A stretch of DNA of 64,000 nucleotides, taken from NCBI GenBank assembly GCA_973895155.1, contig OZ316893.1, forward strand, positions 27,786,210-27,850,209, in the 5' to 3' direction. The notes under the pieces are model-generated. The model was not told the origin of the DNA, did no database searches, and worked only from the letters and a program-made list of their open reading frames with translations. The translations under genes and the position numbers were made by a program. The DNA comes from Marsupella aquatica. Lineage: Eukaryota > Plantae > Marchantiophyta. Positions 5,774-33,425 of this stretch are shown piece by piece (position 1 is the first letter of the stretch; every line of letters starts with the position of its first letter).

Positions 5774-7885
5774 CCTTGTCTTCTTCCCTCATTGCACCGT
5801 GAATGGCATTGAAGTTTTTTGGCACTTCCAAGTACGAGACAATCAGCTTGTAATCTTGAAAGATCTTTAAGACGAAACTTGTCAACTGTCTCCTTCCCCC
5901 CGGTTGGCACATGTATGGAGGATTGAAGGCCCGATTGAAGGTCCCTCTATCCCTTAAAAATCTTGCACTCCCTAAATTTTCCATGTGAGTTAATCACAAC
6001 AAGTGACAATGTCTTCAGAACTTGTACCAGTCAGAGGACTGAAACCCATAAAAGATTTCAAGCAAAATTTCCAAGGGTGGCTTAGAATGAGACGGTGTTG
6101 GACAGCCATGGACATCCTCCGGCTTATATGTTGGAATGTGTTGGCTATCAAAAGTCATCGTCAAACTTGGTGATTTTGCAATTGAATCTGCAACTACCTT
6201 ATCTTTGATGCAAAATGGTATTTGGACATCAATTCTAGAGCTTTGCAATGCTAGACTTGGGGCTCCATATAGTATGTATGACTCACTCAGGAACTTGAAA
6301 TTGTTTGAAAGGAAGCTTTGAACTCCATCATCTTTGGGATATGGAATGAAGGGCATCAGAATGGAGTGGGTTCAAATGCCCGGGAATCAGCACAACATGG
6401 CTTCTCCGGAGGCCGCCTCACACTCTGCTGCGTGAGAGGGAAGTAATAAGGGTGCTCAACTTTGAGCGAGTACTAACCCGTAACTGAAGCCTTACAAAGC
6501 GGGTCACAGCTGGTACCCCATTGGACTTATGTGTTATAACTGGCTCTGGTAAGCTAGGTTCCAAGATCAGTCTTATTCTACCCGTAACTTTTTATTGACA
6601 CTCTACTCTTAGATGCCCTAAGTTTAATTAGGGCATCTCAAACCAGGATACACTACTACATATTTGCCATTTTTGTGAAGGTCATTTACAAGGGGATAAA
6701 CAAACCGCGAAGCGCCGTTCATCGCTCATCTTGCTATGCAAACCGCATCGCAAACTGCGACACTGACACCATCACAACCACTATTTGCGAAACCCAAATC
6801 TTCGCAAATATTTGCAAAACCAAATATCTCCCAAAATGTTTCTGAACCTTTGAGCATTATACTTAGTAGCAATGTTTACCGTTTCGCAAACAACTTGCGA
6901 CGCCGAATGCATCGCTAACGTTGCAATACTTCTGTAATTGGAAAGCGGCTTGCGATGCAAAATTGATCGCAATACAGCGAAACTTAGAGAATCGCTACTT
7001 TTCAATATGGTGTGGCTCGCAAAATCAAGGCGCCTCAGTGGTTCTCTTTAGAGAAGGCTTGAGATTCGGAAAGTTGAGATACGCGTTGCTTCGGAATGTA
7101 GCGATGGTGTTGAGATGGGATCTAGCGATGAGATGGGGATCGCTAATGTAGCCATGAGGTTGAGATGGGTGGGGGTTCGCAAAATGGTTCGGAAAATTGG
7201 TTTTGGGGTTTGTCAGATTTAGAAAGGGCATGGGACAAGGAATGGAGGAAGGAGGGTCAAGGAGAGAGGACGGAGGAGGTACAAACAGTTTTAGGGAGGT
7301 ACACTTTAGGAAGAAAAGGAGGAGGAAGGGTTGACTTAAGGGGGGACAAGGAACAAAGGGAGGAGGGCGGTTTAGGGTGCACAAGGAAATGAGGGAGGAG
7401 GGAGCGTACCTACCTACAGTTTAGGGAGGGAAAAGGAAAGGAGGGAGGAGGGAGGGAGGGTGGAAGGTATAGGTTTAGGAGGGGGACAAGCCAAGGAGAG
7501 AGGAGCATAGGTTGAGGACAGTGAAAGGTGGAAAAAATTGAGGGCATGTATAGGTTTTAAAAAGGAAGGGGTTGAGACAAGGGGAGGAGGGAGGTGGGTA
7601 CAAGTACTAGAGAGAAAGGCTAGGGGGTGGGAGAAGGAAAGCTACGAGGAGGAATGACTACAAGAGACATGAGTTTTCTTTTCATAAAGTGTACCAAAAG
7701 GTGGGAGTGTACATAGGACTTTGGGGATGGAAGATGTAAAAAAGCCACATTTAAAATTGATATACTTACAAGATTGATTTGGGCAAACATAAATTTATAT
7801 AATTTAGAAACAGATATTTCTCCAACCAAGAAGAGAGATCCTCATATGTTCAAATCTAACTATATATCCACATAACATATACCCC

Positions 7886-10800
7886 TCAAACTTGGTCTTC
7901 ATCCTCTTCAGGTTGGGACACAACCAGAATATCTGGCTTTTCCCCAACAACTGAACGAGATTGTGGCACATATGTGATGACAAGTGACCATTCCTCTGGG
8001 TTTGGGGGGTATGGAATATAGAAACATTGTTCCACATGACTTGGAAAAGTGAACGGCTCTGATGTTTGCCAATGAGATGGCTGGAAACTAGTGGCAGATG
8101 TCTTTAGCCGTGTAAATCCACACTCATCTTGAAGCACGGTGGGATTGTTACCTGCAAGGTTCACTTTGAACCACTTGCACTTGAAGACATACTCTTCAAA
8201 CTTTGATTGTGCATCATAAGAGATCACTAGGATCTCCTCTATCTTTCCATAATGTGGCACAACATCTCGAATAATATTTGTGTCATGGCGACTGCTGCGG
8301 GAATCTTGAGAGAATTGTCCTTGAACTCCACAATCAAAGGTACGACCCCTCTTCTCATCAAGGGAAGAAACCCTAAAATCCATCAAACCATAAGGACATG
8401 TTACAAAAATAGGCATAAACATATAACAATTAATATCACATGCCAAAAAAATATCTTTTCAATATATGTGGGTGCATTACACATAAATTAAAATCACCAT
8501 AGATGAAAGGTTACTAAGGTACTTGGAAATAACCTGAAATGTCTCCCTTGTGTCCACATTGCCGTCATTGTTGTAACCATTCTCAAGGGACCATGAACAA
8601 TGGTACGGACGTCATCTGTGATAGCTGGAAAATGTAATACATTCTCTCCCCTCGCTACCATGTCATCCACCTCAACCAACTTCTCCTTCATGTAGTCATG
8701 GTACTTTGGAAAGATCCTTGGTCTTCTACTGGTACTTTTGGCATCCTCATAGAAATCCCTCCATTCTTCCATGATAGTGCTGTTACCCAACATGAATGTG
8801 GTTAGTTTTTTCAACTCCACTGGTGTCAACATGCGGGTTTTTATAGCACCTGTTAAACGATCCTCCTCATCTTCCCTCTCCTCTACCCAAGTACGGGGAG
8901 AGGTACGATCAATTGTGGCCAATATGTTACTGCAATAGAACATACTCTCTGCTGTCAAGTATCCTGTAGCCATGCTTCCCTCAACCCGTGCCCGGTTACG
9001 TACATAACCCTTTAATACTGCCATGTACCGTTCCAACCAATACATCCACCGACAATGCATAGGACCAGCAATGGCCACCTCATGACCAAGATGAACAAGT
9101 AAATGCACTTGGCAATCAAAAAAGGAAGGAGGAAGGGCCTTTTTTAACTTGCATACCACCTCTGCTGCCAGTACCTCCATTCCCGGGATCTCTTCACAAT
9201 ATATCTCCTTAGAACATGTACCCATCTCAATAGTTTTCCCAATGACCACATGGCATCTTGCACTTCTGAACTTTCCAAACCTATTATGGCCATGGGCAAT
9301 ATATGCTGCAATAACCGATGATAGTCATGCATCTTGAGATATATTGGCCACTTATGATTGTCCTCCATCCCAAAGGCTTTCCGAAGATTAGCACCATAAC
9401 CAATAAGAAACCGCATGCCTCCTATGCGATTCCTAAACTCCCTTCTCTGGCCAACAGGAAGCACCCATGGGGCTGAAGGTCGATGTTCTATCCCTGTGAT
9501 AGGATCAATTGTGACCCATACATGTGGATGCATCTCAAGATCCTCACAAGCCTCCCTGAAGTTAGTGTCCTTTTCTCCATAGAAAGCCTTTATCAAAGCC
9601 TTTCCCACATTTCCCTCAATGTGCATGGGGTCCAATAGATGGCGGATCTTCAACTCTCCCCAATAAGGCAAAGTGGTTAATATACTCCATCTAGTCAACC
9701 CGCTACCCTCAAATTGCATGGGATCCTCCTGGTTTGCCACTCTATCAGCCAAGTCTTTCCAATGTGCAAAGTTGTTGGCTCTGGTATATCACGTTCATCA
9801 CCAAAGGGCATATCAATGGAGGAAAATAGTAGTGGGTCAAACCTCATCTGATGGCCCATTGGCAGAAACTTTGTATGCCCAAGATAAACAATCTTGTGAA
9901 GGTGTGATGAGTACTTGGCTATATCACCAAGACTTGGGCCACAAGTGGAGCAAGCCTTGTAGCCTTGGGTTTGCAACCCACTCACAAAGCCAAATCCTGG
10001 TCATATAGACACACATAATATACAATTAGCACATGGAAATGAGGGGATAACATGCATTATCATATCATGCTGGATGTAAACAAAAAAAAGTGTTGTAGTT
10101 TCATAGTTCTTACCTGGGTAGTCATGCATGGTCCACATACAAACCCCTTTTAGTTAAAAAAACCTGTGGGGTACCCCCTGTAGTCTTTTGACCGTCATAT
10201 GCCCATATTCTGTCCAATAATTTTTGGAGTTCCTCGACCACTAATGCCAAATAGGTGTTCATGTTCTTCACCTTCTTTGGCCCTGGGATAATCAAAGATA
10301 GCAATAAAAAGCCCTTTTTCATGGACAACCATGGTGGAAGGTTGTAATTCATGAGAACCACCGGCCAAACTGATGTAGGTCTCCCCTTCCCTCCAAGTGA
10401 ATGAGGGCTAACCCCATCTGATGCCAACCCAAGTCGCACATGCCGAGGGTCACGCTCAAAATCTGGCCATGTTGACTCCACATGTTTATGAGCAGGTGTG
10501 CCATACCATCAACTCGGCCAAGTTAGAACATCTATACATGTGCAACAAGCAAGGAATAATGGGGAACCAACGAACTGCTTTTCTTGGCACCTTCCCGGTT
10601 AGCATGTTTGGGTCATATCGTGGCTCATGACATACTGTGCATTCTGTCATATGGGCTTTGTCCCCATGAAATAATAGCAATCATTCACATAGGCATGAAT
10701 GATATGGTAATCCATGCCAATGGATGAGAGAATCTTCTTTGCATCCTTCCAAGTTCCAGGCAACACATTCTCCAAGGGTAACATCAAGTCATGACTGTTC

Positions 10801-11198
10801 AACAACCCCAATATGGCTGACAAACGACTCAACCGAGCACCCTCAAAGATAGGTGTCCGGGCATGTTCCTTAGCCTCCTTTCATTGTTGTTGTCCCTCTG
10901 GAATATGTTGTGGTCGTGGGTCATTTTGGGGGGCAGCTCCTTCAACACTAATGTCAGGGACACCATCTTCAACATCAGCACCAAACCAATCAACCATGAA
11001 GTCATCCATGGCTCTGTCCTGGTCATGCATGACCTGGTCATCAGTCTGAGGTGTTGCTTCCTTATCACTATGATCACTTACATCATTACTTGATGAGGAT
11101 TCATCATCCTCTGATGGTTCTCCCTCTTCTGGCATGCCCATCTCCCGATATGCTGCTCTCAACCTTCGTGGTAACATTTGTTGAGATGGTTGCACATT
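7886..11198 (-). pseudogene. CACTA transposase (TnpD; Transposase_21/DUF4218/DUF4216), frameshifted
   Basis: ORF pieces with RHVRLGLASDGVSP..SVWPVVLMNYNLPPWL, LDPMHIEGNV, LKMHDYH, FFDCQVHLLVHL..GP...RWMYWLERYM..LKGYVRNRARVEGS, FKCKWF..EPFTFPSHVEQCFY. Confidence 0.92.
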
Positions 11199-11446
11199 CT
11201 ACGCACATCACAACCAAAAAACCTCTTGATGTACATTTCACCAGGTACAACAAAAACAGACTTCAGACCATTCATTCAAGACAAATTAACAATCAGTTTT
11301 AAGGATTGATTGCATGCATTCACATTAAGAACTTAAGTGAAGGGCCACACCAAAATTATACTACTCCAAAATGAGGCCAGAGGACATGTATATAATGATA
11401 AGTGTGAAGTACACACAAGGTACAAGAGGATGTATGACATGGCTCC

Positions 11447-12600
11447 CTAATCCCACTCATAGTGTGTGAATAACTCATCTCCAGCTCTAATAGTCCTAGT
11501 GGCAAGAACTAAGCAATGGTCTTTATGATATGTTGGTCCATATGGTGCCGGCATTGGGCCATCAGTAAAAACCCACTCACAATTGGCCCTACGCTTGGGT
11601 CGAGTCCCCACAGTACTATTTATAAAGCCAGCAATATTCCCATAATGTACGGGATCACCGTCTATCACCCGCTGCTCACTATACCTTCTAGTGCTACCAT
11701 GAAAAGTATCTATCTCTAGGGCATATATTTTCCACTCAGGATGTTGTGCAAGGATCATGTTCCAGTGTCTTCTCTTGTAGATGGGTCCACCGTATGGGAA
11801 CAAAGTAGGACCCTCTCTACCACAAGCACTTGACCCACTCCCATCATCCATGACGATATCCTCACAAGCAAATACTCCATATCCGTGTCTCTCTCCAAGT
11901 GTGGAAGCTTTCACATTCCAATGTCTACCCCAAACCACAATTATCTCCTCATCATAACCGGGAAAATAAGGCAAGCCAAGAGTCATAGGATCCCAATCTT
12001 TGATGATAGAGGCACACTTGCCAGTGAATGAACAAATGCCCCACCTACCCTCAACTAGTGTTCTTGATGGGTCATTGGGTGCTCATGGCCTCCTCTTGGA
12101 CTGGGGCCTGGACCGGGGTCTTCGTGTCTCAGTGGGCACATGAGACTGTTCCTCTTCAGTCCCATGATTTGTACTGACCCCTACACCCAAGGCTTGTGAA
12201 AGTGCATTGCCTATAGCATCTAAAACTCCTTGTGATGGGACATAGGGTGGTGGTGTCACCGGTCTACGCATACTGGATCCCTATTCCATGCAAAAACCCA
12301 CAAAAAACCATGTGTAAACATTGATTCACTTATGAAAATATGAGGGAAAAAAGGCAAACAATTGAAATCCACATGTACCATATGGGGTGAAGAAGCCCCC
12401 GGAGTAAGACCCCTGTGACGTCCATATCTCTCAATATGTTGAGCACACACATAAGATTTTTGAGAAACTTGGCCCACACATCTGGTGCACTCACAAAGTC
12501 TCCGGGGAGGATCACGAGGACCGGTAACCTCAGGTTGAGGAGGAGGGGGTACATCGGAGGAGGAGTACTCACTACTGGATAGTTCAGAGGAGGAGGACAT
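11447..12600 (-). CDS. Two-exon gene: CxCxxC..H (transposase-associated Zn-domain-like) exon plus SET-domain exon; one internal TGA at 12083-12085
   Basis: SET motifs GYGVFA, GNIAGFINST and ATRTIRAGDELFTHY in ORF 11447..11986. The frame continues up to 12280. Intron 12378-12281 (ATG|GTAC..AATAG|GGA, phase 0) joins exon 12600-12379 (CECTRC..CAQHIERYG). Confidence 0.8.
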
Positions 12601-13224
12601 ATCCACTGCCACATTACATTGCATGTAGGGCATGATTAGAATCCCTCTCGGCCAAAAAATATCCTAAAACTAAACTACAAAAACCCTTTTTTGTTTAGCA
12701 TGAAACCCAAAGGAAAGTGTCATGCACAAAAATATCACATTGTCACCCTTGGGAAAATTGTAATGGTCTAGGCCCTGAATTAGGTTAGTGAATTACCTGA
12801 ATGAGACCCGGGCTCAACAGTGCCTATAGGTCGTGTGGCTCAATGAACATGAGCCAAATCTAGAAGTAGGAGGAAAATACTGGAAAAAAATGTAAGTTTT
12901 GGATAGTCATTAGCATCTCTCAAGTTGTGGAACCCCAAACATAAGTTACACATATATATTCTTGCAAAACAAAAAATGGCAAGGTTTATGAAAAATCTCC
13001 ACTAACAACACTACATACATGTTATACCTTTTAGATGCCCGGGTTCCCACAATGCATATGCATTAGACAAAAGTTGAGGAAGTAGTGATGTCCCTGGGGT
13101 GTATCATGATTACATGGGTTTTCCCCTCAATTGTTAGCATAAAAATCTCTTAGAACTTTCCCTCATAAGTTACCGTATAATTAACCCAAGTGTCCATGAA
13201 AATAGAGCCTGTCTTTCCCTCCTA

Positions 13225-13640
13225 AGTTGGCCTAAACCCCAAAAGCCAAAACATAAACACCTCCTCTTATTCCAATACATATAAGCCAAACATTCATAAA
13301 ATGAAATCCCCCTGGCCAAACCCAAAACATAAAACACCTCATACATATTACCCTCCAATCTAAGCCCAACGTACCTTCATAAAATAAACCCTCCCCCAAC
13401 CAAACCAAACGTCCCTCCATTTACCCTCCAATACACATAACCCCAACCTTCATAAAATAAAAACCCTCCCAACCAGGCAAAACCCAAAAGCCAAAATATA
13501 AATCCCCGTCTCTTTCCTTCCAATATAACCCCCAATTTTCTGAAATAACACTCCCCCCAACCAGGCCAAACCCAAAAGCCGTAACATAAAACCCGGGCTC
13601 CTCTTACCCTCCAATGTCAGCACTTTTAAACCCCAACCCT
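13225..13640. repeat. Degenerate C/A-rich tandem repeats between the divergent CACTA genes
   Basis: Recurrent AAACCCAAAAGCCAAAACATAAA / TTACCCTCCAAT / CCTTCATAAAATAAA blocks. Confidence 0.65.
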
Positions 13641-15953
13641 TATATGATCACATGGAATGAATTACTTGTACCAAATTTAATGTTTATGACCCCTCTTAGT
13701 ATCCCTGCTCACAAAAAATACACATGCGAGATGGGGGTCTTTGCAAACCCAATAGCGAACATGTTTGCGAAGCCGTATTCTTTGCAAAGATACCATTTGC
13801 GAAGCTGGTTGAGAAGGTAGAACCATCGCAAACTGCGATGCAAATGACTTCGCAAACCCTAACTCTACTGTCCTTATCATTTGCCGAGCGCGGATGAGGC
13901 GGATCCATTTCTTTTGGGCCTTGGGAGAGAGCACCGCAGGCAAGGGAGGAGCGATGGCAAGCGGAGGGGGAACTGGAGGTGATGGAGGAGCTTCTGCCAG
14001 CAGCGGAGGCAACCACTTAGAGGAGGAGGATCGACTTCAAAAGATTGTGGATGACCATTTCTTGGTTGCGTAGTTGAGTAAGATTGATTTCACCTCTCCA
14101 GCAGGGCTTGCATCATTGAGTGCATTATTGGGCCAGGCCTTGCAATCTGGTCTCAGTGTAGGGAAAGCAGCAAGAGAGGAGGAAGAAAGGAGGACAGCCG
14201 AGCATAAGGCCGCTGAGAAGAAGCGAAAGAGGGATGAGAGAGCTCAGGCTGGAGTACTCTCCCCTCAAGCCTTGGAAAAGAAGAGGAGGAAAGATGAGAG
14301 AGACTTGATCAGGAAACATAGGGAGGAGCAGAGAAAGAAGGAGGAGGCAAGGAGGAAGCTGCCTCTGATTACATTAGAGGATTAGGGAATTCCCACAGAG
14401 CTTGCTTACAATGGGGCCAAGAGCACAATCAGACACATTGTGTCCACAAATTTTGCAAGAGGAGTCGAGTGGGGCACTCTCTCCAAGGCAGAGCAGAAGC
14501 GAGTGATCAATCAGGTGAAAGATGCATTCCGAAATGGAGGAGAGATGGATTCACAATGGCTTGCTGATAAAATCTCAAATTCCATGTCACAAGCACGATA
14601 CCATGACAGGATGAAGATCAGGGCTCACCTGAGAGATCTAGAGGAGTACAGGAATTTAGGGAGGCCGCAACAGTTCTTAGAAGATATCTGGCAGGCCTTC
14701 TACGCCACAGAGGTGAAGTTGAAAGCAGCCAGGGTCCTGAATGAATTTACAAAGAAGTTGACAAAGGCCTGGAAGGCAAAGGAGGCCAGGAAGTCTGACC
14801 ATGACCTGAAGATGATGGAGCAGAAGATGGCCCAGCTGCAGCAGGTTGTAGCAGAGGTGGGAGATCCGCCCAACAAGTTCTTGAAGGCAGCTGAGAGAGT
14901 CCAAGAAAAGCCCAACATCACCCACAGGCTTGGTCAAGGTGGCCTCCCCGGCCTCAAAGCAGCATTTGTGAGTGCACCGCCCTCTCCTCTCTTGACTTCT
15001 TACTCCAATTTCTATTCCAACACACCTGCAATGCCCCAACTCTTTTCTGTTGTGGCACCAAGTACTTCCAATTGGAGTTGTTGTGTCAGATTAGCTCACG
15101 AACATTTGCTTCCCTTTTGACTTTTCGTCATAACAGAAATTGCGAAGCATTTGCAATGCGCGTCGCTTCGCAACTGCTTTGCAAACCTTGTTATTCACTT
15201 TTTTGGAAATAAATTTGCGATGCCCTTGCGAAGCCCCGCGCATCTCAATCAATTTTGCAACCTAGTTTTCCCTTATGTTTGCGAAGCTGGAGACTTCGCA
15301 AATTCAAAAAATTTGAATTTTTGAATATTTCAAAACGTTCAAGTGTTGTTTGAGGGTCGTAAGTCCCCATGCCACCCTTGTAAAACCACCCCCCCAACCT
15401 AAGCCCCAACCCCACTAGCACCTAATTAACCCCTCTAATTGTTTTAAGGCATTTTGGCTTGCTGTTATTGCTTGGTTTTGACCGATTGTGCCGGTTTTTA
15501 TTTTGGTTAGTACAAGAGGTACAAGAGGAAGATCACAGCGCTGAGATGGAGGTGGGCCAGAAACATGGGAAGGAGCATCTCTTTCGGCAAGTTGATCAAT
15601 TATTGGTGAGCGTTAATTTTCAGGTTAATGTGTTGATTGCATTTATGAAAAATTCCCTCTTATGGATGTCATTCACTTAATTGTAAGGTTCTATATGACT
15701 AATGCATTGCTGGCTTGCTAATGTAACAGAGACCGGATGATGATGGTGACTCCCATACCGAGGGTGATAGTAGCAATGAGGATGAGGAGGGGACAGGGGA
15801 GGGGAGTATTGCTCCTGCTAGTCGAGTCAGGCCAACTAGCATTGGAGAGCAATCATTTGCATCAGCACACTCCACTGGTGCTGCGAGTGGTAGTGCGGTA
15901 GGGGATGGGGATGGTGATGGTGATGGGGATGGGGATGGTGGCGGTGATGGGGA

Positions 15954-18900
15954 TGTGGTGCGTCCCATGGCTCCCTAAACCCAAGAAACCCCCCCAGCGC
16001 AAGCCGATTCCCGTAGGTTTCGCGCTTGGCGAGGCTGTTTCCGCGGCTTAGCGGCATGGGACGCTGCTAACCTCCTACTACTACTATTAACATTTTACAC
16101 ACATATACTGGATAGATCCTTCATCGGGTCATGAGATACGTAGCCGGCCTAATCTAGGCCTTCCCTTGTCTTCCCCTCCGTCTTGTTAGGTATGTTTGGA
16201 TTCCGCCGCCGGAATGATCCCCAATAGGCTTGGTTAAGCCGCTAAGACCTCTCTCAGCTCGACACATCCAACTCTCACTCCCCTGCTTACTTTCCTTCCT
16301 CTATTGGTTGATGTGGACACTCTTCACACAAGTTAATGCGACACACAAATAGCAAAGTGACTCCTTCTGACTGAGTCATACCATGCACTTGCCATACAAA
16401 CAGTACATCTCATACACAAGCTCTGCGAACTAAGCCGTGAGGCCAACTCTATTCAGCTCTTAGGCATGAGGAAACATGAATATACACAAGGGTCACTGTA
16501 TGACTAACCGAGAGCTTCTCTTACTACTTGATCCCAGCCCGGCTGGTGCAACTAAAAACTTGCTAAAGAAGAGGCCCTGAGCTCCCCGCTGCCCAGGTAC
16601 TTATCCTGGTAGTGGATCCGCCTAATTCTTTGCAGCGTAAGCCTAATCTACTTAACTGGATCTACCTATGTACAGTGAGGCAGAAGTACAAGTGTTGCTC
16701 TTACCAGTGGAACCGCAATCCCACTAAGCTAAGTGTCAGGGCCGCCTCCTGGTCCTGATCCTAATCCTAAACTTAGAGATCTGAGCCCGCTCTGCCCACT
16801 CACGCCTCCTCCCTCCACGTCCGCCCTTCCTAAAAGGAACGGCGCCCTTGCACCGTCACGACACCGGTGGTGGATCCTCAATGGACGCCCCCAACGCTCC
16901 CTCCGCAACCACTGCCGTAGGTTCGTTCTCTGACAGATTACCTGCCCTTGACTGAGTCAACTCTCCATCGGCCTGACTGGGCCCACCCCCGGCTTCGGCC
17001 TCGGCTCAGAAATCATTCTCGGCTACGGCCTCAGCCTCGGCTACGGCCTCCCCGGCCTGCTCAAGAGGTGGATCTAGGATACCGGCCTCATTACTGAGTA
17101 GTTCGGCTTGGGCCGCGCCATCCCCACCTTTGGTGATAGCGGGATCTATTGCCGTGTTCAAGCCGGAGGTTGGTACCGGTTTGAGTACGGCTTGAGGGGT
17201 CGAATAACCTCCGGACCCCGAAGGTTTCCGCTTCTTCTTCTTCAATATCTCCATAGCCGGTTCCTTCCCCTTGCCGCCAATGTCCGGCACCAGGCCGTGT
17301 GTCACGGCTGGTCCTTCGGCAATTACCACCCCGGGTAACTGGTTTGCGCCAACGGGAGATGGACCTGATGCAGCTAAGCATTTAAATACTGCGGCTTGTT
17401 TCTTCAGCCGCTTTGTTTGGTTGTCGGCCCGCCGCTGTAGGTTCTCCATCTTCCTCGTGATTTCCTCCAACTCCTCCTGGGTCTCATCCAGGTCCTTACG
17501 TGCCTCCTCTAGCTCGTTTTTGGCTTCCTCCAATTCCTTCTTGGTGGTAGCCCTCTCCTCCTGGGTTGCTCTTAGCTCCTTGTCGAGCTCCGCTACGACC
17601 TCAGACTCCATGTTATTCATCTTGGCATAAGTCTGGTCGAGCTGGGCGTCCGTCTCCCGCAGGTCGGCCTTGAAGCTGGCCGTCAGGGACGCAAGCTCCT
17701 GCTGTAGCGCAATAATCCCTTGATAGGATTTCCCTAACTCGGCCTCCTTCTGCTCAAGGGCTCTGTGGATGACCTCGAGCTCTTCCTTCAGCGCCCTCTC
17801 CCTTCTCTGAGTCTCCGCCGTGACCCGGTTGTTGACTGCTATATGGGCCTCCTCTGCGTCTCTCAACTCCTTCTTCCATTTCTCCCTGTCCTTGATTGCG
17901 TCGGCCAATTCTCCCTGGGTCTGAGTCAGTTTATCCTTGATAATCTGATTATCAACCTACGCAGTGTCCAACTGCCCCTGCATGATGTTCAGCTCATGCT
18001 GCTTAATCCGCAGTTCATCTTGGGCTTTCTTGGCCGCCCTTAGATCTTCAATCTGGGCTTCCATCCTCCTAAGCCGCCGGATGACCTCGTCCTTCTTGCT
18101 TCTCTCTAAAGCCACCGCTTCTTCTAATTGGTGCTTCTCCAACTGCTCCCTATGGAAAAAGGGTCCTACCTCCAACTCCTCCCCAAAGATGCCGAGCGCA
18201 AGTTCCCCACATATCTCACCATACTCCATGGCTCTATTTTTAGCGTAGGTGGAGTAAGTAGAAGTGATCGGCATCGCCCATCGCGGCCTCTGCTCCCAAG
18301 CCGTCTTGCGGATCTCTTCAATCGTGGCTAGAGGTTTGCTTCCTTTTTTGGCTAGCCGCCTGATGTCCTCCGGCCAATCTCCTCCTGGCAAATCCTTTTC
18401 CCTAGCCAGGGCTGCCTTTTCTACTTCCCTAAGTCGCTCCTGAAATTCCTGTGCCGTCTGCTTTATGCCGTCAAAGCTCGGGGGAGCAACATCTGGTGGG
18501 GGAGACTCGGGGCTACTCTGCTGGTTGGGGTCCCCTCAAACTACCCTTGGAAGTGTGGGGATAAACCGGCCACAGGTCCTTACTCCTGGAACGTGATGGT
18601 CCGACCCATAGCCGGAGTTATCATGGCTGCAGTCCTCCACTGCCTCCTCCACCTCTTGGACTTCCGGCTTCTCCCTCTCCTCTTTGCCGGTAGGAGCTTC
18701 AAGCAATTCTGCCTCAGATTCAGAGCTTGAGACTCCCACGTACATTCGAACACCCAGCTTGGATTCTGGCCTGATTCTTCCGGTAAAGGGGTTTTCCCTT
18801 CTAAGTCTGCTTAGGTTGACCTCTGGGGCAGTGTCCTGTATTGGTGCCGCTGCCGAAGCTAGTGCCGCCTTTTCCTTCTCCAGCATTTTCAGCAGATTCT

Positions 18901-20580
18901 GCATGCTTGGTTGCTGCATCGGCAAGTCTTCCTTCCTTGGCCTAAACACCTGCTCAATCGTAGGGCTAACAGGTGGTTGAGGCTTCTCTGCTACCGGCCT
19001 TGGTGCTGGAGCTTCCTCGGGTGCCCTTACCTGCAGGGGAAGTACTGGGGCAAAGGTCTGACCTCTCGCATACCGGCACAACAGCGGCATGTGATAGCCA
19101 AGCCGCGACACGCTCCCCAGGCCGATTACCTGCTGCTCCTCCTTTAAGATCTTCTTCAATTGGTTGAGGAGGTACCCGTTGTAGTCCCGGCTTGGGTCTG
19201 GCCTCTCTGCCAGATAGACTTGTGCCTTGCCGATCTCTGCCCTCGGCAAGTTACAATGCATGGTCACCCGCAAGAAGTCGATCATCTCTCCTATGTGCGG
19301 GTTGGTGCAGGTGTTCCGGAAGAAGCCATTCTTCGTTGATGGCCCGGGGAACGACCGGAACTCCTTGTCAGGCAAGGTCTTCCTGGTATCAACTTTGGTC
19401 TTATTGCCTATCGGCAAGCCAAACACTTCGGCAATCACCTTGGGAGTAAGATAGAAATCCTTCCCATATATCCTCGTGGAATTGGTCTCGGGTTCCCATG
19501 ACCCCACGAATTCTAATAGGTCTGAATCCGGCACCTCCGGCTTCAGCCATGGTAATCTTACAAAGGCCTCTAAGCCGGATCCGGCCATGAAGCCTTGGTA
19601 CTTCTTGGTCTGCATGGCCGTAAAGCATGCATCCTCCTCCCGTGCAAAATGTAGTTGCACCTCCTCTGGTAGGGTTGCCGCCCAGCCTTTCCAGGTGTCA
19701 TCCCTGGTTGGAATGGCATTGATGGGATCGTCCTCCTCCTCTTCGGCTTCTCCCTGCCTCCTGCTCTGCTGCTCAGCTGGCTTCTTTGGTGCCGCCAACC
19801 TCGTTCTTTTTGTCGGGGTGGCTTCATCGTTGACGGCTCCCTTCCTCTTCATTTTGGCTCCTGTGGATGTCTCTCCTAGCACGGTTGCCTTTGTCCACCC
19901 CTCCGTGCTACCCTTCAACTCCCAGTGTATGTTGTTGTAGTGTTTGATGGCTTCTCGGATGCCGACGACTCTATCTTCGCAAAACAAAAGATCGTCGAGC
20001 TGATTGGAAGTAGGAGTCCACAAGAACTCGGCCTTGATGAGTTCGCCTCCTAAGAAAGCCGTCTTCTGCAGCTCCCACAATCGAGTGAGCTCCTGCCATT
20101 CTCGAGCTGCCCTTTCTGATTCTTCATCCTCGTAAGTCTTGATGTATTCAGTTGCCCGTTCGAATAGCATCCCCAGAAATGTGCCGCTTGATTGACGTTG
20201 CTCATACCCTCCTTAGGTCGATCGTCAGTATCTACTCTCTCCCCGAGTGCTTGCCTAAGCAGCTGACAGTAGTTGGCCTCCCGTAGTCATCTGCCTAGTT
20301 CGTGCTCGCAAATGAGCCACCATTCCCTGCAAGCGCTCCTTACCCCTCTCCTCTTTCGGTTCTTCCTCCCGTTGATCCTTCCTAGCCGCCGACGCTTAGT
20401 GCGCCCTAACCCTAATCTTGTTTTCACGCCCAGCGTCCTTACCTCCGGCCTCGGCCCGGGTTCCATAGTCGCCCCTAATTGTTTATATTTTCCTTGTTTT
20501 GTCCCTATACTAAGGTGTTTCTAGGGTACACTTCCCTTTTCCCCTTAAACTAGCCCAGTGATTCCTGACTAGGCATCACA
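15954..20580 (-). mobile_element. Solo LTR (4627 bp) of the gypsy family at 20779-28030
   Basis: TG...CA ends with an 8-bp imperfect IR (TGTGATGC / TGTGGTGC); 5-bp TSD GGGGA (15949-15953, 20581-20585). Its 5' end TGTGATGCCTAG matches the sequence starting right after the PPT at 24393. Confidence 0.88.
17006..20466 (-). pseudogene. LTR-encoded ~1150-aa protein (PMD/plant-transposon-domain-like plus long coiled coil), copy A
   Basis: ORFs 18536..20170, 17957..18391 and 17006..17908 join across nonsense codons that are sense codons (CGA, CAG) in copy B. ATG (MEPGPRPEV) lies ~115 bp inside the LTR. GLEAF..LLEFVGSWEPET..LTPKVIAEVFGLPIG motif. Confidence 0.8.
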
Positions 20581-20778: not shown

Positions 20779-23700
20779 AGCCAAAGTAATAGAGGATTGG
20801 GGTAAGAAGGAGTTCACCTTTGGGGCCCCATCTATCACGTTATCCTGGGACACCAAGGATGACCGCAGGAAAAACATCAGGTAGATAGATGGGTACGACA
20901 GTGGACTGGAATCCGCCGATGAAGTACGTTGGCTAGAATGCCTCACTGACCTAACCGAAGAAAGTGTGTTTGGACCGGAAGAGCCCTCCAGCGGACTATG
21001 GCATGAACCTATGGAGAGTAACCTGGAGGAAGGTGAAGAAGAGACCAAGGATTGCTTTGCCATAGAGTCAACATTTTTAGCTTCAATTCCGGAGGAGACA
21101 CAAGAGGCGGATCGGCTAGATGAAACGGCTCGGTGGGGAGCTACACCAGAGACAATGGATTTTCCTCGGGCGTTGTGGCAAAACCGACAGGATCCACAAC
21201 GCCGTCTATCATCGGCAACAAATTAAATACCAAGGGATCGGCTTACAAGCCGATCACAAGGGCAGAACAAATTGAGGCCCTGCTAGAAGCCGGAAGAGCA
21301 CGACAGCCTGACCCTCAGGAAGCAAGAATAGATAAGATGCACGGGAAGAAACCAGAGCCGAGTCAAGAAGGGGAGCTGAGAACCAATTCAAAACCAAGCA
21401 GAACGGTAAGGGAACAGTCTATTAATAACCAGGGAGAACCTAAGTCAACCAACTCGGCTAGTACTGCCAAGATTCCAGTCTATGGAGGTATGAGACTAGA
21501 GAGGCTGGAAGCCGAGTTGGACCCAAATTTGAAGAAGCAGATTAATATGATCCAAGCACGGCAATACCGAAAGCTAGACTTAGGAGAAGGAAGGGAACTG
21601 AACTTGGGGCGGGACCTAGCACCTGAGCTTGAGAAAGAGATCAGTGAATTACTAATTGAATTTCAGGATGTGTTCGCATGGAGTCACCAAGATCTGAAGG
21701 GAGTAGACCCAAAACTAGGAGAACATCGAATCGATCTCATGTTAGGGGCCAAATCATTTCAACAATCGATTTGAAGGATGAACCCTAAGTATTCTCTGAT
21801 GGTCAAGGCTGAAATCGATAAACTAGTGGAAGCCGGATTCATCACTCCATTCCTGCATTTTGACTAGGTGTCTCCAATTATGATAGTTCCCAAGAAAGCT
21901 GGACCCGATGGTAAACCAAAGATCCGGGTTTGTCAGGATTACAGGAAGTTGAATGAGGCTACGTTAAAAGACCATTTTCCCTTACCCTTTACTGATATGG
22001 TACTAGACATGGTAGCCAATCATGAGCTATACTCATTCATGGATGGATACTCTGGTTATAACCAAATCAGGATTAGGCAGGAGGACCAAATCAAGACAGC
22101 CTTCATCACAGAATGGGGGATCTGTGTCTTCAATCGTATGCCGTTTGGACTCTGTAACGCACCAGCTATGTTCCAACGATTAATGGTGAACATTTTTCAT
22201 GACTACTTGAGAAAATTCATGGAAATCTTCATTGATGACTTTGCAGTAGTTGGGAAGGCATCGAAACATGCTAAATACCTCAGGAAGACCTTCATGAGAT
22301 GCAGAGAGGTAGGCCTCAAGTTACACCCAGATAAATGTTTCTTTGCCGTAGCAGAGGGTGTGCTACTAGGTCACAAGGTATCAAAAAAGGGCATTGAGAT
22401 TGATAAGGGTAAGCTAGCAGTGTGGCTAGATATCATGCAACCTAAGAACATAAAGGATGTGAGATCCTTCTTGGGTTGCATTGGTTATTATCGCCGGTTC
22501 ATCAAGGATTTTGCCAAGCTAGCTTTACCATTAACCAACATGCTCAAGGCAGGTGCAAACTTTGAACCTACACCAAAACGAGTGACAGCGGTAGTGGAAT
22601 TGAAGCAGATGTTAGTAGAGGCCCCAGTCATGATAGCACCAGACTGGAACAAGGATTTTCATGTCTTTGTAGATGTCTCAGGCTTTTGTATCGGCTCAGT
22701 ACTAAGTCAGTTAGATGAGAAAGGAAGGGACCATCCTATATACTTTGCAAGCCACCAGCTTGCCGATGCCGAACGAAACTACTCCACCACAGAAAGAGAA
22801 GCATTAGGAGTCATTTATTCATGTAAAAAGTTTAGGCATTATCTGCTAGGGTACAAGGTAATCTTTCATACTGATCATGAAAGTTTAAAATACCTAGTAA
22901 ATAAGCCGGAACTTACAGGCAGGGTAGCAAGATGGATTTTGCTATTACAAGAGTTTGACTACGAGTTAAAAATCAAGCGAGGAAAGCTACACGCCAATGC
23001 CGACTTCTTTTCAAGGATCACAGGTGAACCTACCACGGATTGCATCGACGATCGATTTCCCGACGAGGAGCTATTTGTTGTGGAAATAGCTGATACATGG
23101 TACCCTAAGATTTTACAATTTCTCAGCACTTCTAGATTACAGCCCGGACTAAGCCGAGAGCAAGCCGCAGTCTTTTTGCGGAAGGTCAGACAGTATCAGT
23201 GCATTAAGGGCGTGCTACACAGGCATGGAATCAGCAGCACGATTCAAAGGTGTTTGGAGGAGGGAGAGGTAAAACGAGTCTTACGAGCTATGCATGGGGA
23301 GGAGGCCGGGGGATATTTCGCTCCAGTAACCACTTCTAAAAAGATATTAAATGCCGGTTACTGGTGGCCCACCTTGCACAAAGATGTCTATAAGTTTATC
23401 AAACAATGTGATCCTTGTCAACGAGCAGGAGGACCAAGGGCGTCCACAAGACATCCACTGCATCCTATTCTACCTCTGGCACCATTTGAGAAGTGGGGTA
23501 TTGATTACATCGGACCCCTGAAACCATTGACCCATCCTCGAAGAAACAAGTACATAATCTTGGCCACGGATTATGCAACTAAGTGGGTAGAGGCCAGGCT
23601 GACAACGAAGGATGATGCAATTACTACGGCTTGATTCATGTATGAGCAGATCTTCACCAAGTATGGCGCACCCTTAGAATTAGTTAGTGATAGAGGAACC

Positions 23701-24404
23701 CATTTTCTGAATGATATAATTAGTCGTTTAAATGAGCAGTATTTAGTTAGACCTAGGCCTACTACTCCCTACCACCCAAAGGCAAACGGGTTGACAGAAC
23801 GAGCCAATGGAATTATAGGAAAAATATTAAACAAAACTGTAGCCTAGAACAAACTCGATTGGGATGATGAATTGTTTGCTGCTGTTTTTGCTTACAATTT
23901 AGCCTATCCACTACCGGTCATACACCTTTTTTCTTAACCTTTGGACAGGAAGCTCTGGTACCCATGCAACTTGAGATCCCTACATTTCAAGTTACAATTG
24001 AGGAGAGAACCTCAGAGGAGGAAAGCCTAAAGGATCGAGAATATAGATTAGAGGCCTTAGAAGAGGCAAGAATGATTTCAGCCGAGAGAGTAGAATATAG
24101 ACAGAATACCATGAAGCAGCGGTATGATAAAAGGTTGAAACTAGTTAGTATTCACACAGGAGATCTTGTATTACTTTATGACAGTAGGTATAGTAGGTTT
24201 CTGGGGAAACTTTATACTTGCTGGTTAGGACCTTTCAGGGTATCAATGAAGTTCTCTAATAGCTCTGTGCAATTGGCCAACATAACTAGAGAGGTGTACC
24301 CAGTTCGCATCCATTACGACCGCCTCAAGAAATACTATATGGACGAAGATGAAGTTGTTTGCAAGGACGCTTCACAAATAAGTGGGGAGCTATGTGATGC
24401 CTAG
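20779..24404 (+). pseudogene. pol: gypsy pol (RT, RNase H, integrase) with several stops/frameshifts
   Basis: SPIMIVPKK, QDYRKLN, DGYSGYNQI, MPFGLCNAP, FIDDF (RT); DVSG, EREAL, TDH (RNase H); CDPCQ, IDYIGP, SDRG, ERAN, WLGPF (integrase). Confidence 0.95.
24376..24389 (+). other. Polypurine tract of the gypsy element
   Basis: AAATAAGTGGGGAG, 3 nt before the TG of the 3' LTR. Confidence 0.75.
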
Positions 24405-27400
24405 CCAAGAATCACTAGGCCGGTTTACATGGTAAAAGCAGGAGTGTACCCTGGAAACACCTTAATATAGTAACAAGACAAGGAAAATATAAACAATTAA
24501 GGGTGACTATGGAACCCGGGCCGAGGCCGGAAGTAAGGACGTTAGGGGAGAGAACACGATTAGGGTTAGGGCGTGTTAAGCGTCGGCGGCTAGGGGTGAC
24601 CAACGGGAGGGAAGACAAGAGGAGGAGAGGGGTAAGGACTGCTCGCAAGGAATGGGGGCTCATTTGCAAGCACGAACTGGGCAGACGACTACGGGAGGCC
24701 AAATACTGTCAGTTGCTTAGGCAAGCACTCTGGGTGGGAACAGATACCAACGATCGAGTTAAGGAGGGTATGAGCAACGTCAATCAAGCGACACATTTTT
24801 GGGGATGCCTGTTCGAATGGGCAACTGAGTACATTGGGACTTACGAGGACGAAGAATCAGAGAGAGCAGCTCGAGAACGGCAGGAGCTTGCTCGACTGTG
24901 GGAGCTGCAGAAGTCTGCCTTCTTAGGAGGAGAACTCATCAAGGCCGAGTTCTTGTGGACTCCTACTGCCAATCAGCTTGATGACCTTCTGTTTTGCAAA
25001 GACAGAATCGTTGGCATTCGGGAAGCCATCAACCGTTGCAACGACGCGCACTGGGAGTTGAAGGGTAGCACGGAAGGGTGGACAAAGGCAACTGTGCTAG
25101 GAGAAACATCCACGGCAGCCGAGATGAAGAGGAAAGGAAACAACAACAAAGAGGCCACCCCGGCAAAAAGAACGAGGTCGGCAGCACCAAGAAAACCAGC
25201 AGAGCAGAAGAACAGGAGGCAGGGAGAAGCCGAAGAGGAGGAGGTCGATCCCATCAATGCCATTCCAACAAATGATGACACCTGGAAAGGCTGGGCGGCA
25301 ACCCTACCAGAGGAAGTGCAATTACATTTTGCATGGGAGGAGGATGCATGCTTTACGGCCATGCAGACCAAGAAGTACCAGGGCTTCATGGCCGGATCCG
25401 GCTTGGAAGCCTTCGTAAGATTACCATGGCTGAAGCCGGAGGTGCCGGACTCAGACTTATTAGAATTTGTGGGATCATGGGAACCCGAGACCAATTCCAC
25501 GAGGGTGTATGGGAAGGATTTCTATCTCACTCCCAGGGTGATTGCCGAGGTGTTTGGCTTGCCGATGGGTAATAAGACCAAGGTTGATACCAGGAAGACC
25601 TTACCTGACAAGGAGTTTCGGTCGTTCCCAGGACCATCAACAAAGAATGGCTTCTTCCGGAACACCTACACCAACCCGCACAATCGGAGAGATGATCAAT
25701 TTCTTGCGGGTGACCATGCATTGTAACTTGCCGAGGGCAGAGATCGGCAAGGCTCAGGTCTACCTGGCAGAAAGGCCAGACCCAAGCCGGGATTACAACG
25801 GGTACCTCCTCAACCAACTGAAGAAGATCTTGAAGGAGGAACAGCAGGTGATCGGCGTGGGAAGCGTGTCCCGGCTTGGCTATCACATGCCGCTGTTGTG
25901 CCGGTATGCCAGAAGTCAAATCTTTGCCCCAGTACTTCCCCTATCGGCAAGGGCACCGGAGGAGGTTTCGGAGCAGAGGCCGGCAACAGAAGAGCCCAAC
26001 CAGCATGCCAGTCCTACGATCCAGCAGGTGTTTCGGCCAAGGAAAGAAGACTTGCCGATGCAGCAATCAAGCATGCAGAATCTGCTGAAAATGCTGGAAA
26101 AGGAGAGAACGGCACCAGCAACGGCAACGGCACCAGTACAGGACACTGCCTCAGAGGCCGGCCTAAGCCGACTCAGGAGGGAAAACCCCTTTACCGGAGC
26201 CAAGGAGAGAAGGAGGCCGGAACACAAGTCGAGAGTGCGAATGTATGTGGGAGCCTCAAGCCCCGAATCGGAGGCAGAGCAGCCTAAGGCTCCTTCCCGT
26301 GGAGAGCAGAGGGAGAGGACAGCCTGGAACCCAGAGGAGGAACAAGAGCCCGTGATCTGTGAGGCCATTTTCACGGCAGGACCAGGGGAACAGAGGGGGA
26401 AGTCGGGAGTCCAAGCATTGGAGGAGGCGGTGGAGGACTACAGCAACGATAACTCCGGCTATGGGTCGGATCATCATGTTCCAGGAGTAAGGACCTGTGG
26501 CCGATTTATCCCCATGCTTCCAAGAGTAGTTCGAGGGGACCTCACTCAGCAGAGTAGCCCCGAGTCTCCCCCACCAGAGGTTGCTCCCCCGAGCTTTGAC
26601 GGCTTAAAGTAGACGGCACAAGAATTTCAGGAGCGACTTAGGGAGGAAGAGAAAGCAACCCTGGCTAGGGAGAAAAATTTACCAGGAGGAGATTGGCCGG
26701 AGGACATCAGGCAGCTTGCCGAGAAAAGAAGCAACCCTCTTGCCACCGTAGAAGAAATCCGCAAGGCGGCTTGGGAACAGAGGCCGAGGTGGTTGATGCC
26801 GATGACTTCTACTTACTCCACCTATGCTAAAGATAGAGCCATGAAGTACGGGGAGATGTGTGAGGACCTGGCGCTCAGCATCTTTAATTTGGGGAGGAGT
26901 TGGAGCAGGGACCTTTCTTCCAGAGGGAGAGGTGGGAGAAGCACCGATTAGAAGAAGCGGTGGCTTTGGAGAGAATCAAGAAGGACGAGGTCATCCGGGG
27001 GCTTAGGGAGAAGGAAGCCGAGGTGGAAGTCCAGCAGGCGGCCAAGAAAGCCCAAGATGAGCTGCTGATTAAGCGGCATGAGCTAAACATCATGCAAGGA
27101 CAATTGGATGCCGCTCAGTCTGGCAGTCAAATTATCAAGGATAAACTGACTCAGACCCAAGGAGAGTTGGCTAGCGCGGTCAAGGACAGGGAAAAGTGGA
27201 AGCAAGAGCTGAGGGATGCAGAGGAGGCCCACTTAACCGCCAACAACCGGGCCATGGTGGAGACTCAAAGAAGAGAGAGGGCGTTGAAAGGAGAGCTCGA
27301 AGATATCCGCGGAGCCCTTGAGCAGAAGGAAGCCGAGTTAGGGAAATCCTATCAAGGGATTATTGCGCTGCAGCAGGAGCTTGCGTCCCTGACGGCCAGC

Positions 27401-28030
27401 TTCAAGGATGACCTGCGTGAAAAGGACGACCAGCTCGACCAGACTTATGCCAAGATGAATAAGATGGAGTCTGTGGTCGTAGCAGAGCTCGACAAGGAGC
27501 TAAGAGCAACCCAGGAGGAGAGGGCTACCTTTAAGAAGGAATTGGAGGAAGCCCAGAAGGAATTGGGGGAAGCCCAAAAGGAGCTGAAGGAGGCGCGCAA
27601 GGACCTGGACGAGACCCAGGAGGAGTTGGAGGAAATCATGAGGAAGATGGAGAACTTACAGCGGCGGGTCGACAACCAAACAGAGCGGCTGAAGAAACAA
27701 GCCGTAGTATTTAAATGCTTGGCTTCATCAGGTCCAACTCCAATTGGGGCAACCCAGTTACCAGGGGTAGTATTGGCCGAAGGACAAGTCGAGACACTCA
27801 CCCCGGTACCGGAGGTAAGTGGCAAGGGAAAGGAACCGGCTGTCGAAATAAGGAAGAAGAAGAAGTGGAAACCTTCTGGGCTGGGTCTGGGAGTTATACG
27901 GCTTCTCAAGCCGTTGTGACCGAGAAGATTAACCCGGCACCAACCTCCGGCATCGACACGGCGATGGATCCACCAGTCCTAGGAAGTGGGTATGGCAAGG
28001 CCGGGACAACCAGTAATGAAGTCGAGGCTT
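24393..28030 (+). repeat. 3' LTR (truncated at ~3.6 kb), inverted homolog of 15954-20580
   Basis: Starts TGTGATGCCTAG; collinear with the reverse complement of ~17080-20580; similarity ends at ~28030. Confidence 0.88.
24509..28030 (+). pseudogene. LTR-encoded ~1150-aa protein, copy B
   Basis: ORFs 24503..25726, 25542..26612 and 26900..27919 are homologous to copy A; its lesions are at different positions from those in copy A. Confidence 0.8.
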
Positions 28031-31800: not shown

Positions 31801-32309
31801 CAAAGTACCAAGTTCTGTCAGCACTTGTAGGAAAGACATGTGTAGATAAAAGGCAGCAGACCTCTCTAGCGAAAGCTTTGGGTATACAACGGCAAAATCT
31901 TCATAGAGCATCTAAGATGAGGATACAGATTGATGCAGACAGTAAAAAAATGTATCCTATGGGGGAAAGAAAGGTACGTCGAGACAAGATTTCTGATGAA
32001 GTTCGAATCCAGGTGGAACACTTTTGGGAAACTCACACTAGGATTTCTCCATGTAAGAATAATGAAGCCAGATTGCGACTAGGATGGAAAATGGTTCAAA
32101 CACATCAAGTGCACTGGCTGGAGGATACACAGGTGAGAAACTCTATGTGATTGATGTAACTGTTATGTCCATTTTGCCAGATTTGATTGAACTCTTATCT
32201 CCACTCCTTGATGAGTAATTTTCCTTGTTAGTCAACCATTGTGATCGCTACCCAGTGTGTTGTAAAGGTAAGATTTGAATAAATTTTGTGGCCTAAAGAC
32301 TGTTAGTAG

Positions 32310-32835
32310 TCCCTAGTCAAGGACTATTAATAACTGACGAAGGACTATGGTCAGGACTGTAGTCCTTCCCCAAGGACCTTAATAGTCCTTTCTCAAGGAC
32401 TATACTCCTTTCTCAAGGACTTTACTCCTTTCCCCAGGACTGTGCTCCTTTCTAGTCCTTTCTCAAGGACTTTACTCCTTTTCCAAGGACTCTATTCCTT
32501 TTCCGAGGACTATAGTCCTTTGTTAAGGACTCTACTCCTTTTCCAAGGACCAGAGTCCTTTCTGAAGGACTCTACTCCTTTTCCAAGGACTCTAGTCTTT
32601 TCGTAAGGACTCTAGTCCTTTTCCAAGGACTCTACTCCTTTTCCGAGGACTATAGTCCTTTCTGAAGGACTCTACTCCTTTTCCAAGGACTCTACTCCTT
32701 TTCCGAGGACTATAGTCCTTTCTGAAGGACTCTACTCCTTTTCCGAGGGACTATAGTCCTTTCTCAAGGACTATACTCCTTTTTCGAGGACTATACTCCT
32801 TTTTCAAGGACTTTAGTCCTCTTCGATCCGAGGAC
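32310..32835. repeat. ~21-bp minisatellite of palindromic AAGGAC-N5-(G/C)TCCTT units in transposase intron 1
   Basis: About 20 tandem units such as AAGGACTCTAGTCCTTTTCC. Confidence 0.92.
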
Positions 32836-33138
32836 TCCTGTTCCAAGTTTTTAAGTCGAGTGCATTGAGTACTTGAGTCCTTCCAAATTGATTCTACTCC
32901 TTCCCTAAGAACTTTAGTCCTTCACCTCTCTTGGTAGAGTCTTCCAATAAGAGCTTGGACCCTTATTGAAGGACTGTAGTTGCAGGCAGAACTGAAGTCC
33001 TTCAGTAAGTAGTAGTACCCACATACATGGGTTTTTGTGGCTGCACATTTGAGGGTATCCGTTCCTAACAGTCTTTCTAACAAAAATAATGTATGTCTTG
33101 TATATGTATAGTTCCAATTTTTTTCAGCATTTTGTGAC

Positions 33139-33425
33139 CTCGGGGGGTTAACTAAGTGTATATTTTGGGGTACCACGTGCGATCCTAGCCTAATATAAAT
33201 AGACCTATTTTATAAAGAAAATATTCCAAGAATATTCTCTATTTTAAATATTAATAACCTATTTTACTTTATAAAGGGTATATATTAAAGAATATTCTAT
33301 AAACATGAGTTTATAATACCTTCTTTTGCCTCCTACGCATATAAAATTTTTAGTTAAAATCTGTCAAAAATACATATTTTGGATCGCACGTGGTTCCTAA
33401 GATTTTTGATAATCAACCCCCCGAG
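33139..33425. mobile_element. MITE, 287 bp, 8-bp TSD, inserted in Sola2 transposase exon 2
   Basis: Ends CTCGGGGGGTT / AACCCCCCGAG; inner IR ACCACGTGCGATCC / GGATCGCACGTGGT; perfect TSD TTTGTGAC (33131-33138 / 33426-33433). Removal restores FQFFSAFCD|WCTREQ. Confidence 0.93.

Follow-up and report, generated by a model that had tools for sequence, protein, structure and literature searches.

An old CACTA transposon lineage of land plants carries a SET-domain exon and likely splices its first exon to both SET and transposase

An old, land-plant lineage of CACTA transposons carries a SET domain. The window (the whole 64,000-nucleotide stretch of Marsupella aquatica DNA that we analyzed) contains a dead copy of this lineage, with a finger exon, a SET exon, and the transposase on the minus strand (Table 1). 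The SET exon is conserved and, judging from substitution rates, is under purifying selection, and the first exon is likely to be common to the SET and transposase products by alternative splicing. We propose that the finger is spliced either to the SET domain or to the transposase, and that the SET product, which is likely an active lysine methyltransferase, would mark chromatin at copies of the element and so relieve their silencing. We consider this proposal, taken as a whole, to be evenly poised between right and wrong.

Read along the minus strand, the window copy has a 222-nt finger exon, a 98-nt GT-AG intron, an 834-nt SET exon with its own stop codon, 248 nt of non-coding sequence, and then the transposase. 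The preliminary description of the window called this a CACTA element, and we agree: there is a right terminal inverted repeat (TIR) at 6651, the transposase has tnp2, DUF4218, and DUF4216 domains, and one relative (L028) is a complete element with CACTA TIRs at both ends and the 3-bp target site duplication ACA (positions 6072-15964, 9.9 kb). Clusters of TCGCAA at the right end, between the genes, and in an intron of ORF-B account for 19 of the 38 TCGCAA hexamers in the window, and they resemble CCVTCGCAAA, the target of TnpA. The nearest named relatives of the element are from Calypogeia and Sphagnum.

Table 1. Features of the SET-bearing CACTA copy, in window coordinates
Feature	Position	Strand	Evidence
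CACTA right TIR, CACTACTACATAT	6651..6663	+	Agrees in 12/13 letters with L028 (complete relative) at its right end
Subterminal TCGCAA cluster	6748..7183	.	9 exact hexamers; near-matches at 31 per kb vs 2 per kb in coding parts
TnpD-type transposase body (acidic N-terminal part, tnp2, DUF4218, DUF4216); broken	7886..11198	-	PF02992, E = 6.5e-28; PF13960, E = 4e-32; PF13952, E = 4e-8
Non-coding, from SET stop to transposase acceptor TGCGTAG; putative SET 3' end and end of the long intron	11199..11446	-	
SET exon, 277 codons: disordered linker, then 206-residue SET-fold domain	11447..12280	-	Acceptor AATAG at 12281/12280, in frame; terminal TAG
98-nt GT-AG intron, finger exon to SET exon	12281..12378	-	Donor and acceptor kept in relatives
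First coding exon, CxCxxC-x13-H-x4-G finger, PF13963-like; putatively common to SET and transposase products	12379..12600	-	hhalign; Pfam matches of relatives
Internal TCGCAA cluster separating two divergent genes	13764..13856	.	4 exact motifs
ORF-B, divergent multi-exon gene, with stops in the window copy	13954..15975	+	Same place in 8 loci
Third TCGCAA cluster, inside ORF-B intron	15140..15302	.	6 exact hexamers
Another, far more abundant repeat in place of this copy's left end	15977..16500 (boundary approximate)	.	Jump in contig depth

The preliminary description did not mention the divergent gene ORF-B (from 13954, plus strand) or the loss of the copy's left end. Near 15.9-16.0 kb, contig depth rises more than tenfold in all four runs, and no left TIR or subterminal cluster was found in the window sequence beyond about 16 kb. 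We call the copy dead because its transposase has stops and many insertions or deletions: it is broken by stops, frameshifts, and deletions, with many runs of gaps relative to the homologous locus L001. The SET exon has a single internal stop (12085-12083), as reported before. All of the contigs that cover 12085, in all four runs, read another letter there, so this stop is private to the window copy. Contigs from these runs cover the introns, and none of the joints listed matches either intron; these contigs are uninformative on expression.

Other repeats lie elsewhere in the window. Two long inverted arms (17142-20580 and 24393-27971) are 84-87% alike and contain coiled-coil and other ORFs. 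Between them is a Gypsy-type reverse transcriptase-RNase H-integrase region (20885-24404); these are possibly two elements in opposite orientation. A 12.2-kb unit (29679-41896) has a perfect 27-nt inverted repeat at its bounds, tandem arrays of 20-21 nt at 32.3-32.9 kb and 37.1-37.8 kb, transposase-like ORFs with no match in Pfam (33413-35532), and a weak RING ORF (38760-39326). At 58989-60576, an RNase H1 N-terminal (Cauli_VI) ORF is on the strand opposite to a Copia reverse transcriptase.

The arrangement of SET and transposase is not peculiar to the window. A scan of metagenomes yielded 45 loci, 33 close and 12 distant. In 22 of the 33 close loci, SET is immediately followed by the transposase, which starts about 150 nt past the SET stop; 10 others end too soon, and at the remaining one (L021) SET is cut and there is no transposase within 10 kb. 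The finger exon is upstream in 14 of the close loci and a divergent ORF-B is present in 8. Left CACTA ends were seen at L006, L008, and L037. A CACTA transposase also follows SET at two of the 12 distant loci (L035 and L044), where SET identity is down to 27-29%. L035 (29% SET identity) has the finger, SET, and transposase exons in the window's order, with three phase-0 sites, and its near-twin L037 opens with a CACTA TIR. In gene models from Riccia sorocarpa, SET pieces come directly before the transposase (P0063, P0065, and P0273) or the finger comes before SET (P0148, P0158, and P0199). The synteny that the preliminary description proposed to look for is thus found in both close and distant relatives.

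Eight of the distant loci (L036, L038-L043, and L045) form a subfamily in which no transposase was seen, with 1.2-4 kb of downstream sequence present in three of them; another (L034) is short. The subfamily is in AT-rich DNA and has the same NS motif as the window's SET. L040 matches L045 at 82% over 3.8 kb, the upstream exon of L043 differs and is cysteine-rich, and P0216 is listed with this group. It may be another carrier of the SET gene or a non-autonomous form. The wider SET family includes a Ginkgo protein, from a gene model. In L044 (190-1600), which is a decayed distant copy, CGCSTC cysteines and a later histidine are far apart and seem to lie within the SET-bearing stretch, so its exon structure may differ from the window's.

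We computed pairwise dN/dS between real copies by the Nei-Gojobori method (the comparison with L035 was saturated and was left out). For SET, the window against six loci gave dN/dS of 0.19-0.22 (dS = 0.75-0.9; upper bootstrap limits of 0.28-0.32). Other parts of the element gave similar or lower values: 0.09-0.13 for tnp2, 0.17-0.24 for DUF4218, 0.12-0.21 for the finger exon, and 0.14-0.16 for ORF-B. SET and tnp2 also have the same rank order of identity to L001 in five comparisons (77/86, 44/60, 38/58, 38/48, and 29/47 percent; one of these pairs uses two related Riccia proteins).

These results bear on whether the SET exon is a fragment of a host gene that was captured by a Pack-type element and evolves neutrally. 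Copies inside one family do drift (dN/dS of 0.6-1.0 for SET) and the window copy has a stop. However, the transposase drifts equally within families (0.4-1.4), as expected for dead copies; dN/dS for SET is about 0.2 between families; the same layout is found at 29% identity; and at E up to 0.001 the SET family comprises 350 cluster representatives. Given the selection between families and the conserved synteny, we reject neutral capture, which is extremely improbable, and the one-off capture that the preliminary description had considered is not what we see. Pack-CACTA capture would leave a neutral fragment, confined to one copy, of a host gene that can be recognised, and the fixed layout, the selection between families, and the large SET family argue against this.

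The SET cores of a liverwort type (P0002, P0120, Calypogeia) and a moss type (L001/P0001, Sphagnum type) are 77% identical, while those of Riccia, which is also a liverwort, are only 38-44% identical. The ends of the intron at 12281-12378 still align between the window and the Sphagnum-type loci. The likeness between moss and liverwort could be due to horizontal transfer between bog bryophytes, or there could be several old lineages.

The preliminary description placed a SET exon between the finger exon and the transposase, without pre-SET or post-SET cysteine clusters, and this stands. Pfam's SET model (PF00856) matches the window with 29.8 bits (E = 8.6e-7; cut-off 22.4 bits), and the motifs are GYGVFA, NIAGFINS, and IRAGDELFTHY. 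SET is the only Pfam domain in the SET products. Structure prediction, which had been suggested as a check, also agrees. With 33 close sequences the model was poor (pLDDT of 44.8), but with 122 sequences it was confident (pLDDT of 90.1), and the structures that it matches best are, without exception, SET or PR domains (Foldseek E = 2e-7; Z = 12.2, rmsd of 2.5 over 124 residues). The model leaves us in little doubt that the domain has the SET fold. On the other hand, the comparison to a minimal domain such as vSET did not hold up, as the confident model comprises 206 residues and includes an N-terminal hairpin and helices. The best viral structure match (E = 7e-7) is no better than the cellular ones, so these matches speak neither for nor against an origin from vSET. 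A pattern scan of viral contigs and prokaryote genomes, which detects close relatives only, found no relative.

The fold matches do not point to any single substrate: Z is 10-12 alike for Set1, EZH2, SET7/9, and SET8, with no eukaryotic sub-type standing out. A search of sequences in PDB with a shallow SET alignment gave no match. The best sequence match with a solved structure is LegAS4/RomA (PDB 8swi, 8sr6, and 5czy; E = 2e-9, with the next at 1e-4; Z = 11.1). Like our family, LegAS4 has no histidine after the asparagine (RYINFS) and no cysteine clusters; unlike it, LegAS4 is a secreted bacterial protein with ankyrin repeats that read H3. LegAS4 methylates H3K14, according to the accessible part of bioRxiv 10.64898/2026.05.29.728679. 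Because the identity is only 25-29%, we do not predict a substrate from this match. A profile search of 1.84 billion representatives found 350 members of the SET family at E up to 0.001, including 186 at 1e-10. An Atlas query with a SET homologue returned SET clusters only, of which the first is probably the query's own.

Is the SET product active? GxG and YxG are described as motifs of SET lysine methyltransferases (PMC7412744, available text). Among 122 aligned members of the family, GxG is kept in 89/100 and 101/103, the Tyr/Phe of YxG in 108/111, the motif Asn in 104/114, the catalytic Tyr in 80/87, and the Glu of ELxxxY in 85/92. The family departs from the NHxCxPN motif in that the first Asn is kept without the Cys (the last Asn is kept in 107/108), and the position of the Arg/His that precedes NH in the consensus holds Gly or Ala. 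The preliminary description had remarked on NS in place of NH in this copy. None of the 156 stored family proteins that have the motif has the His, so NS is a family trait, and decay of the window copy is ruled out as its explanation. The protein ends three residues past the catalytic Tyr. Post-SET residues of other SET domains help to close the cofactor pocket, and the short C-terminus may leave that pocket open.

Given these departures, the SET product might be a pseudo-enzyme, which would read or act as a decoy by binding a histone tail or methyl-lysine, and would shield the element without catalysis. The NS motif across the family and the very short C-terminus fit this idea, as do statements in the accessible part of PMC4146578 that H/RxxNHxC is important for activity and that inactive SET or PR domains exist. 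However, the same source notes that several PRDM proteins without the H/RxxNHxC consensus are active, LegAS4 lacks the His yet is active, and GxG, YxG, the Asn, and the catalytic Tyr are retained at 88-98%. We consider a pseudo-enzyme improbable. Based on the motifs and the model, the SET product is likely an active SAM-dependent lysine methyltransferase; we think it reasonably probable that it has SAM-dependent activity.

The translation of the finger exon reads MSSS...CECTRC...H...PHM, followed by GT at 12378 in phase 0. The SET acceptor (12281/12280) and the transposase acceptor (TGCGTAG/AAT, 11199/11198) are also in phase 0, and the donor is in frame with both, as claimed in the preliminary description. 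The donor GT is retained in 16/16 pattern-matched loci and the SET acceptor AG in 13/15 aligned homologous loci. The AG of the transposase acceptor is retained in 20/22 close loci, even though the sequence upstream of it diverges, and there is an in-frame stop just 5' of this acceptor.

The finger resembles PF13963, which is the usual start of CACTA transposases. The comparison with PF13963 that had been suggested earlier gave matches below the cut-off for relatives (E = 0.023 for the finger of L035 and E = 0.0056 for the N-terminus of P0064) but none for the window's finger exon on its own. When aligned with hhalign to the N-terminal segments of 19 PF13963-annotated angiosperm transposases, the finger matched with a probability of 87.9 (E = 3.2e-6); this result is biased because the segments were picked by CxCxxC, but the H-x4-G spacing is independent of that choice. 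A CxCxxC finger is within the first 200 residues of 19/19 PF13963-annotated relatives that we tested. P0064 is a continuous ORF of 1135 residues that has the finger and the transposase but lacks SET. We built a quick tree of 39 transposases, in which P0064 groups with all 12 of the SET-linked ones (SH-aLRT of 100). It may represent a transcript that has been spliced or come from an element that lacks SET. Under either origin, its ORF and its place in the tree indicate that the finger is the N-terminus of the transposase in this clade. Together with the resemblance to PF13963, this makes it likely that the exon is shared. We left P0080 out of the tree: this gene model from Sphagnum has a WRKY part, a piece of a SET-linked transposase, and a DEMETER-like part, and is probably an annotation chimera across an insertion.

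The joining of finger to SET is seen more directly. Gene models from Sphagnum, Calypogeia, and Riccia join them, and P0146 (Logan) is a continuous finger-plus-SET ORF. Because the source of P0146 reads through introns elsewhere (P0059), the fusion of finger and SET exists as real sequence.

The exon might instead not be shared, if there is a finger-SET gene and a separate transposase gene that starts at MLPRR, or if finger, SET, and transposase are fused. There is an in-frame Met (MLPRR) 8 codons past the transposase acceptor, and ATG opens the transposase exon of L035, which makes a start of its own possible for the transposase. Also, 0/15 gene models among the longer finger-bearing proteins have a clean finger-to-transposase junction, and in four models (P0057, P0063, P0065, and P0273) a cut SET continues into the transposase. 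But the acceptor AG and its frame are retained in 20/22 close loci, in the window, and in L035, the 7 codons that precede the Met keep the frame, and both the CxCxxC fingers of the PF13963-annotated relatives and the ORF of P0064 argue for a transposase that starts with the finger. In the fusion models, the catalytic Tyr is lost or the junctions are at differing places, and the place of the SET stop is fixed; we rejected a SET-transposase fusion as the normal product. We consider an unshared exon a shade less probable than a pseudo-enzyme.

Under our preferred reading, one promoter would serve both products. Removal of the short intron and 3' end formation past the SET stop would give finger-SET, and skipping to 11198 would give finger-transposase; we are fairly confident in this step. 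The shared finger would then recruit the SET product to wherever the transposase goes, probably through contact with a protein that is bound to the TCGCAA clusters, and ORF-B is the candidate. We offer this step tentatively, as somewhat less than an even bet. According to the available text of bioRxiv 10.64898/2026.08.24.746577, sequence-specific binding of DNA by plant Spm elements is due to the tandem HTH of TnpA-like proteins, which are often encoded by a separate gene, and TnpA from Arabidopsis binds CCVTCGCAAA. By analogy, we favour ORF-B over the finger as the candidate for binding DNA, and the finger is more likely a docking module; ORF-B might have a TnpA-like role. ORF-B has no family match in Pfam or PDB, and at L037 there is no ORF-B between the TIR and the finger, both of which weaken the recruitment step. 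A predicted complex of ORF-B and the finger scored 0.00 (without alignments, and with the finger poorly folded), which says nothing for or against their contact. Finally, the substrate would be a histone and the effect anti-silencing, which we rate as slightly short of an even chance.

The splicing and the activity could also be as we propose while the substrate is not chromatin at the element: the enzyme might methylate the transposase, ORF-B, or a protein with which the host silences transposons, or it might lay down a widespread mark that weakens the defences of the host, as the SET enzymes of pathogens do. The nearest solved sequence is indeed from a pathogen enzyme that acts across host chromatin, the SET family has insertions of its own and favours no eukaryotic sub-type (Z of 10-12), and no DNA-binding domain is apparent in the SET product. 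Against this, the finger is retained on the SET product across families that are below 50% identity, which fits co-targeting with the transposase, and cases of broad anti-silencing in plants are said to be few (PMC12973397, accessible part). We view such a substrate as unlikely, although it is more probable than either a pseudo-enzyme or an unshared exon.

A bolder version of our preferred reading would be that a CACTA lineage of the same age as land plants delivers both its transposase and a histone methyltransferase of its own to its ends, by means of one docking finger. This methyltransferase would belong to a His-less class that is outside the host's SET repertoire, and it would block silencing by writing a mark that plants do not otherwise use (such as methylation of H3K14). 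This would be the first transposon-encoded, self-targeted histone writer. We consider this version speculative and unlikely to be correct in full, if marginally more probable than a substrate away from the element.

In the accessible sources, the plant cases with a demonstrated self-targeted effect are VANDAL and the TnpA of Spm, both of which act on DNA methylation, and the SET genes on transposons have so far been annotations only. Because there are intact SET copies in sequenced mosses and liverworts, the idea of a transposon that writes its own histone mark can be tested. Our results also bring to light a large SET family that has no name and in which the NS motif is fixed; clustered at 50%, it has 350 representatives. 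In Sphagnum and Riccia, its members are listed as host "SET domain-containing proteins", and the number of chromatin genes attributed to these hosts may be too high as a result. If targeting by the small finger is real, then the system would offer a programmable and compact writer for use in plants.

We found no report of a land-plant CACTA-SET element in the accessible literature that we searched, including the available parts of PMC12973397, PMC11982613, and bioRxiv 10.64898/2026.08.24.746577; Repbase entries and the supplements of the Spm and Plavaka preprints may bear on this. The preliminary description knew of no plant CACTA-SET system that had been described, and in these sources we found none for the land-plant clade. 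The novelty is narrower than it implied because SET genes have already been reported as cargo of further DNA transposons, one EnSpm lineage among them. HarbingerS and Phytophthora MuDR (PMC12730594, which in its accessible text traces these reports to Repbase Reports) and proto-Helentron and Helentrons (PMC4067079) are also DNA transposons with their own SET genes, as far as the available text goes. Unlike our element, they are of other superfamilies and hosts, and their SETs are separate accessory ORFs; the SET of Helentrons is described as having the usual cofactor sites (PMC4067079).

The EnSpm lineage is the red-algal Plavaka with PAG2 (bioRxiv 10.1101/2025.02.11.637652). As described in the accessible part of that preprint, it too has carried SET stably over long times, and a role in chromatin is proposed in both cases. 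PAG2 is a separate gene and is fused to an adenine methylase, the elements are 17-19 kb, and sharing of an exon with the transposase is not described there. A Plavaka-type cassette (a fusion of SET and adenine methylase, with PAG1 and PAG3) was not encountered in our lineage: Pfam identifies SET alone, and the complete element is 9.9 kb. VANDAL elements with VANC are similar in that a factor encoded by the transposon is proposed to act on its own copies, but they are of the MULE superfamily, cause DNA hypomethylation, and have no SET; their function has been demonstrated, whereas ours is deduced.

A close parallel in organization is En/Spm (Spm of maize, Spm1 and Spm3 of Arabidopsis; bioRxiv 10.64898/2026.08.24.746577, available text). 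Both have CACTA ends, a 3-bp target site duplication, tnp2, DUF4218, and DUF4216 domains, and TCGCAA clusters, and in both, a second product would come from the transcription unit of the transposase (putatively, for our element). In En/Spm, that alternative product is a tandem-HTH DNA binder, and TnpA acts through host demethylases. In the bryophyte element, it would be an enzyme of the SET fold, and there is a third gene in the opposite direction.
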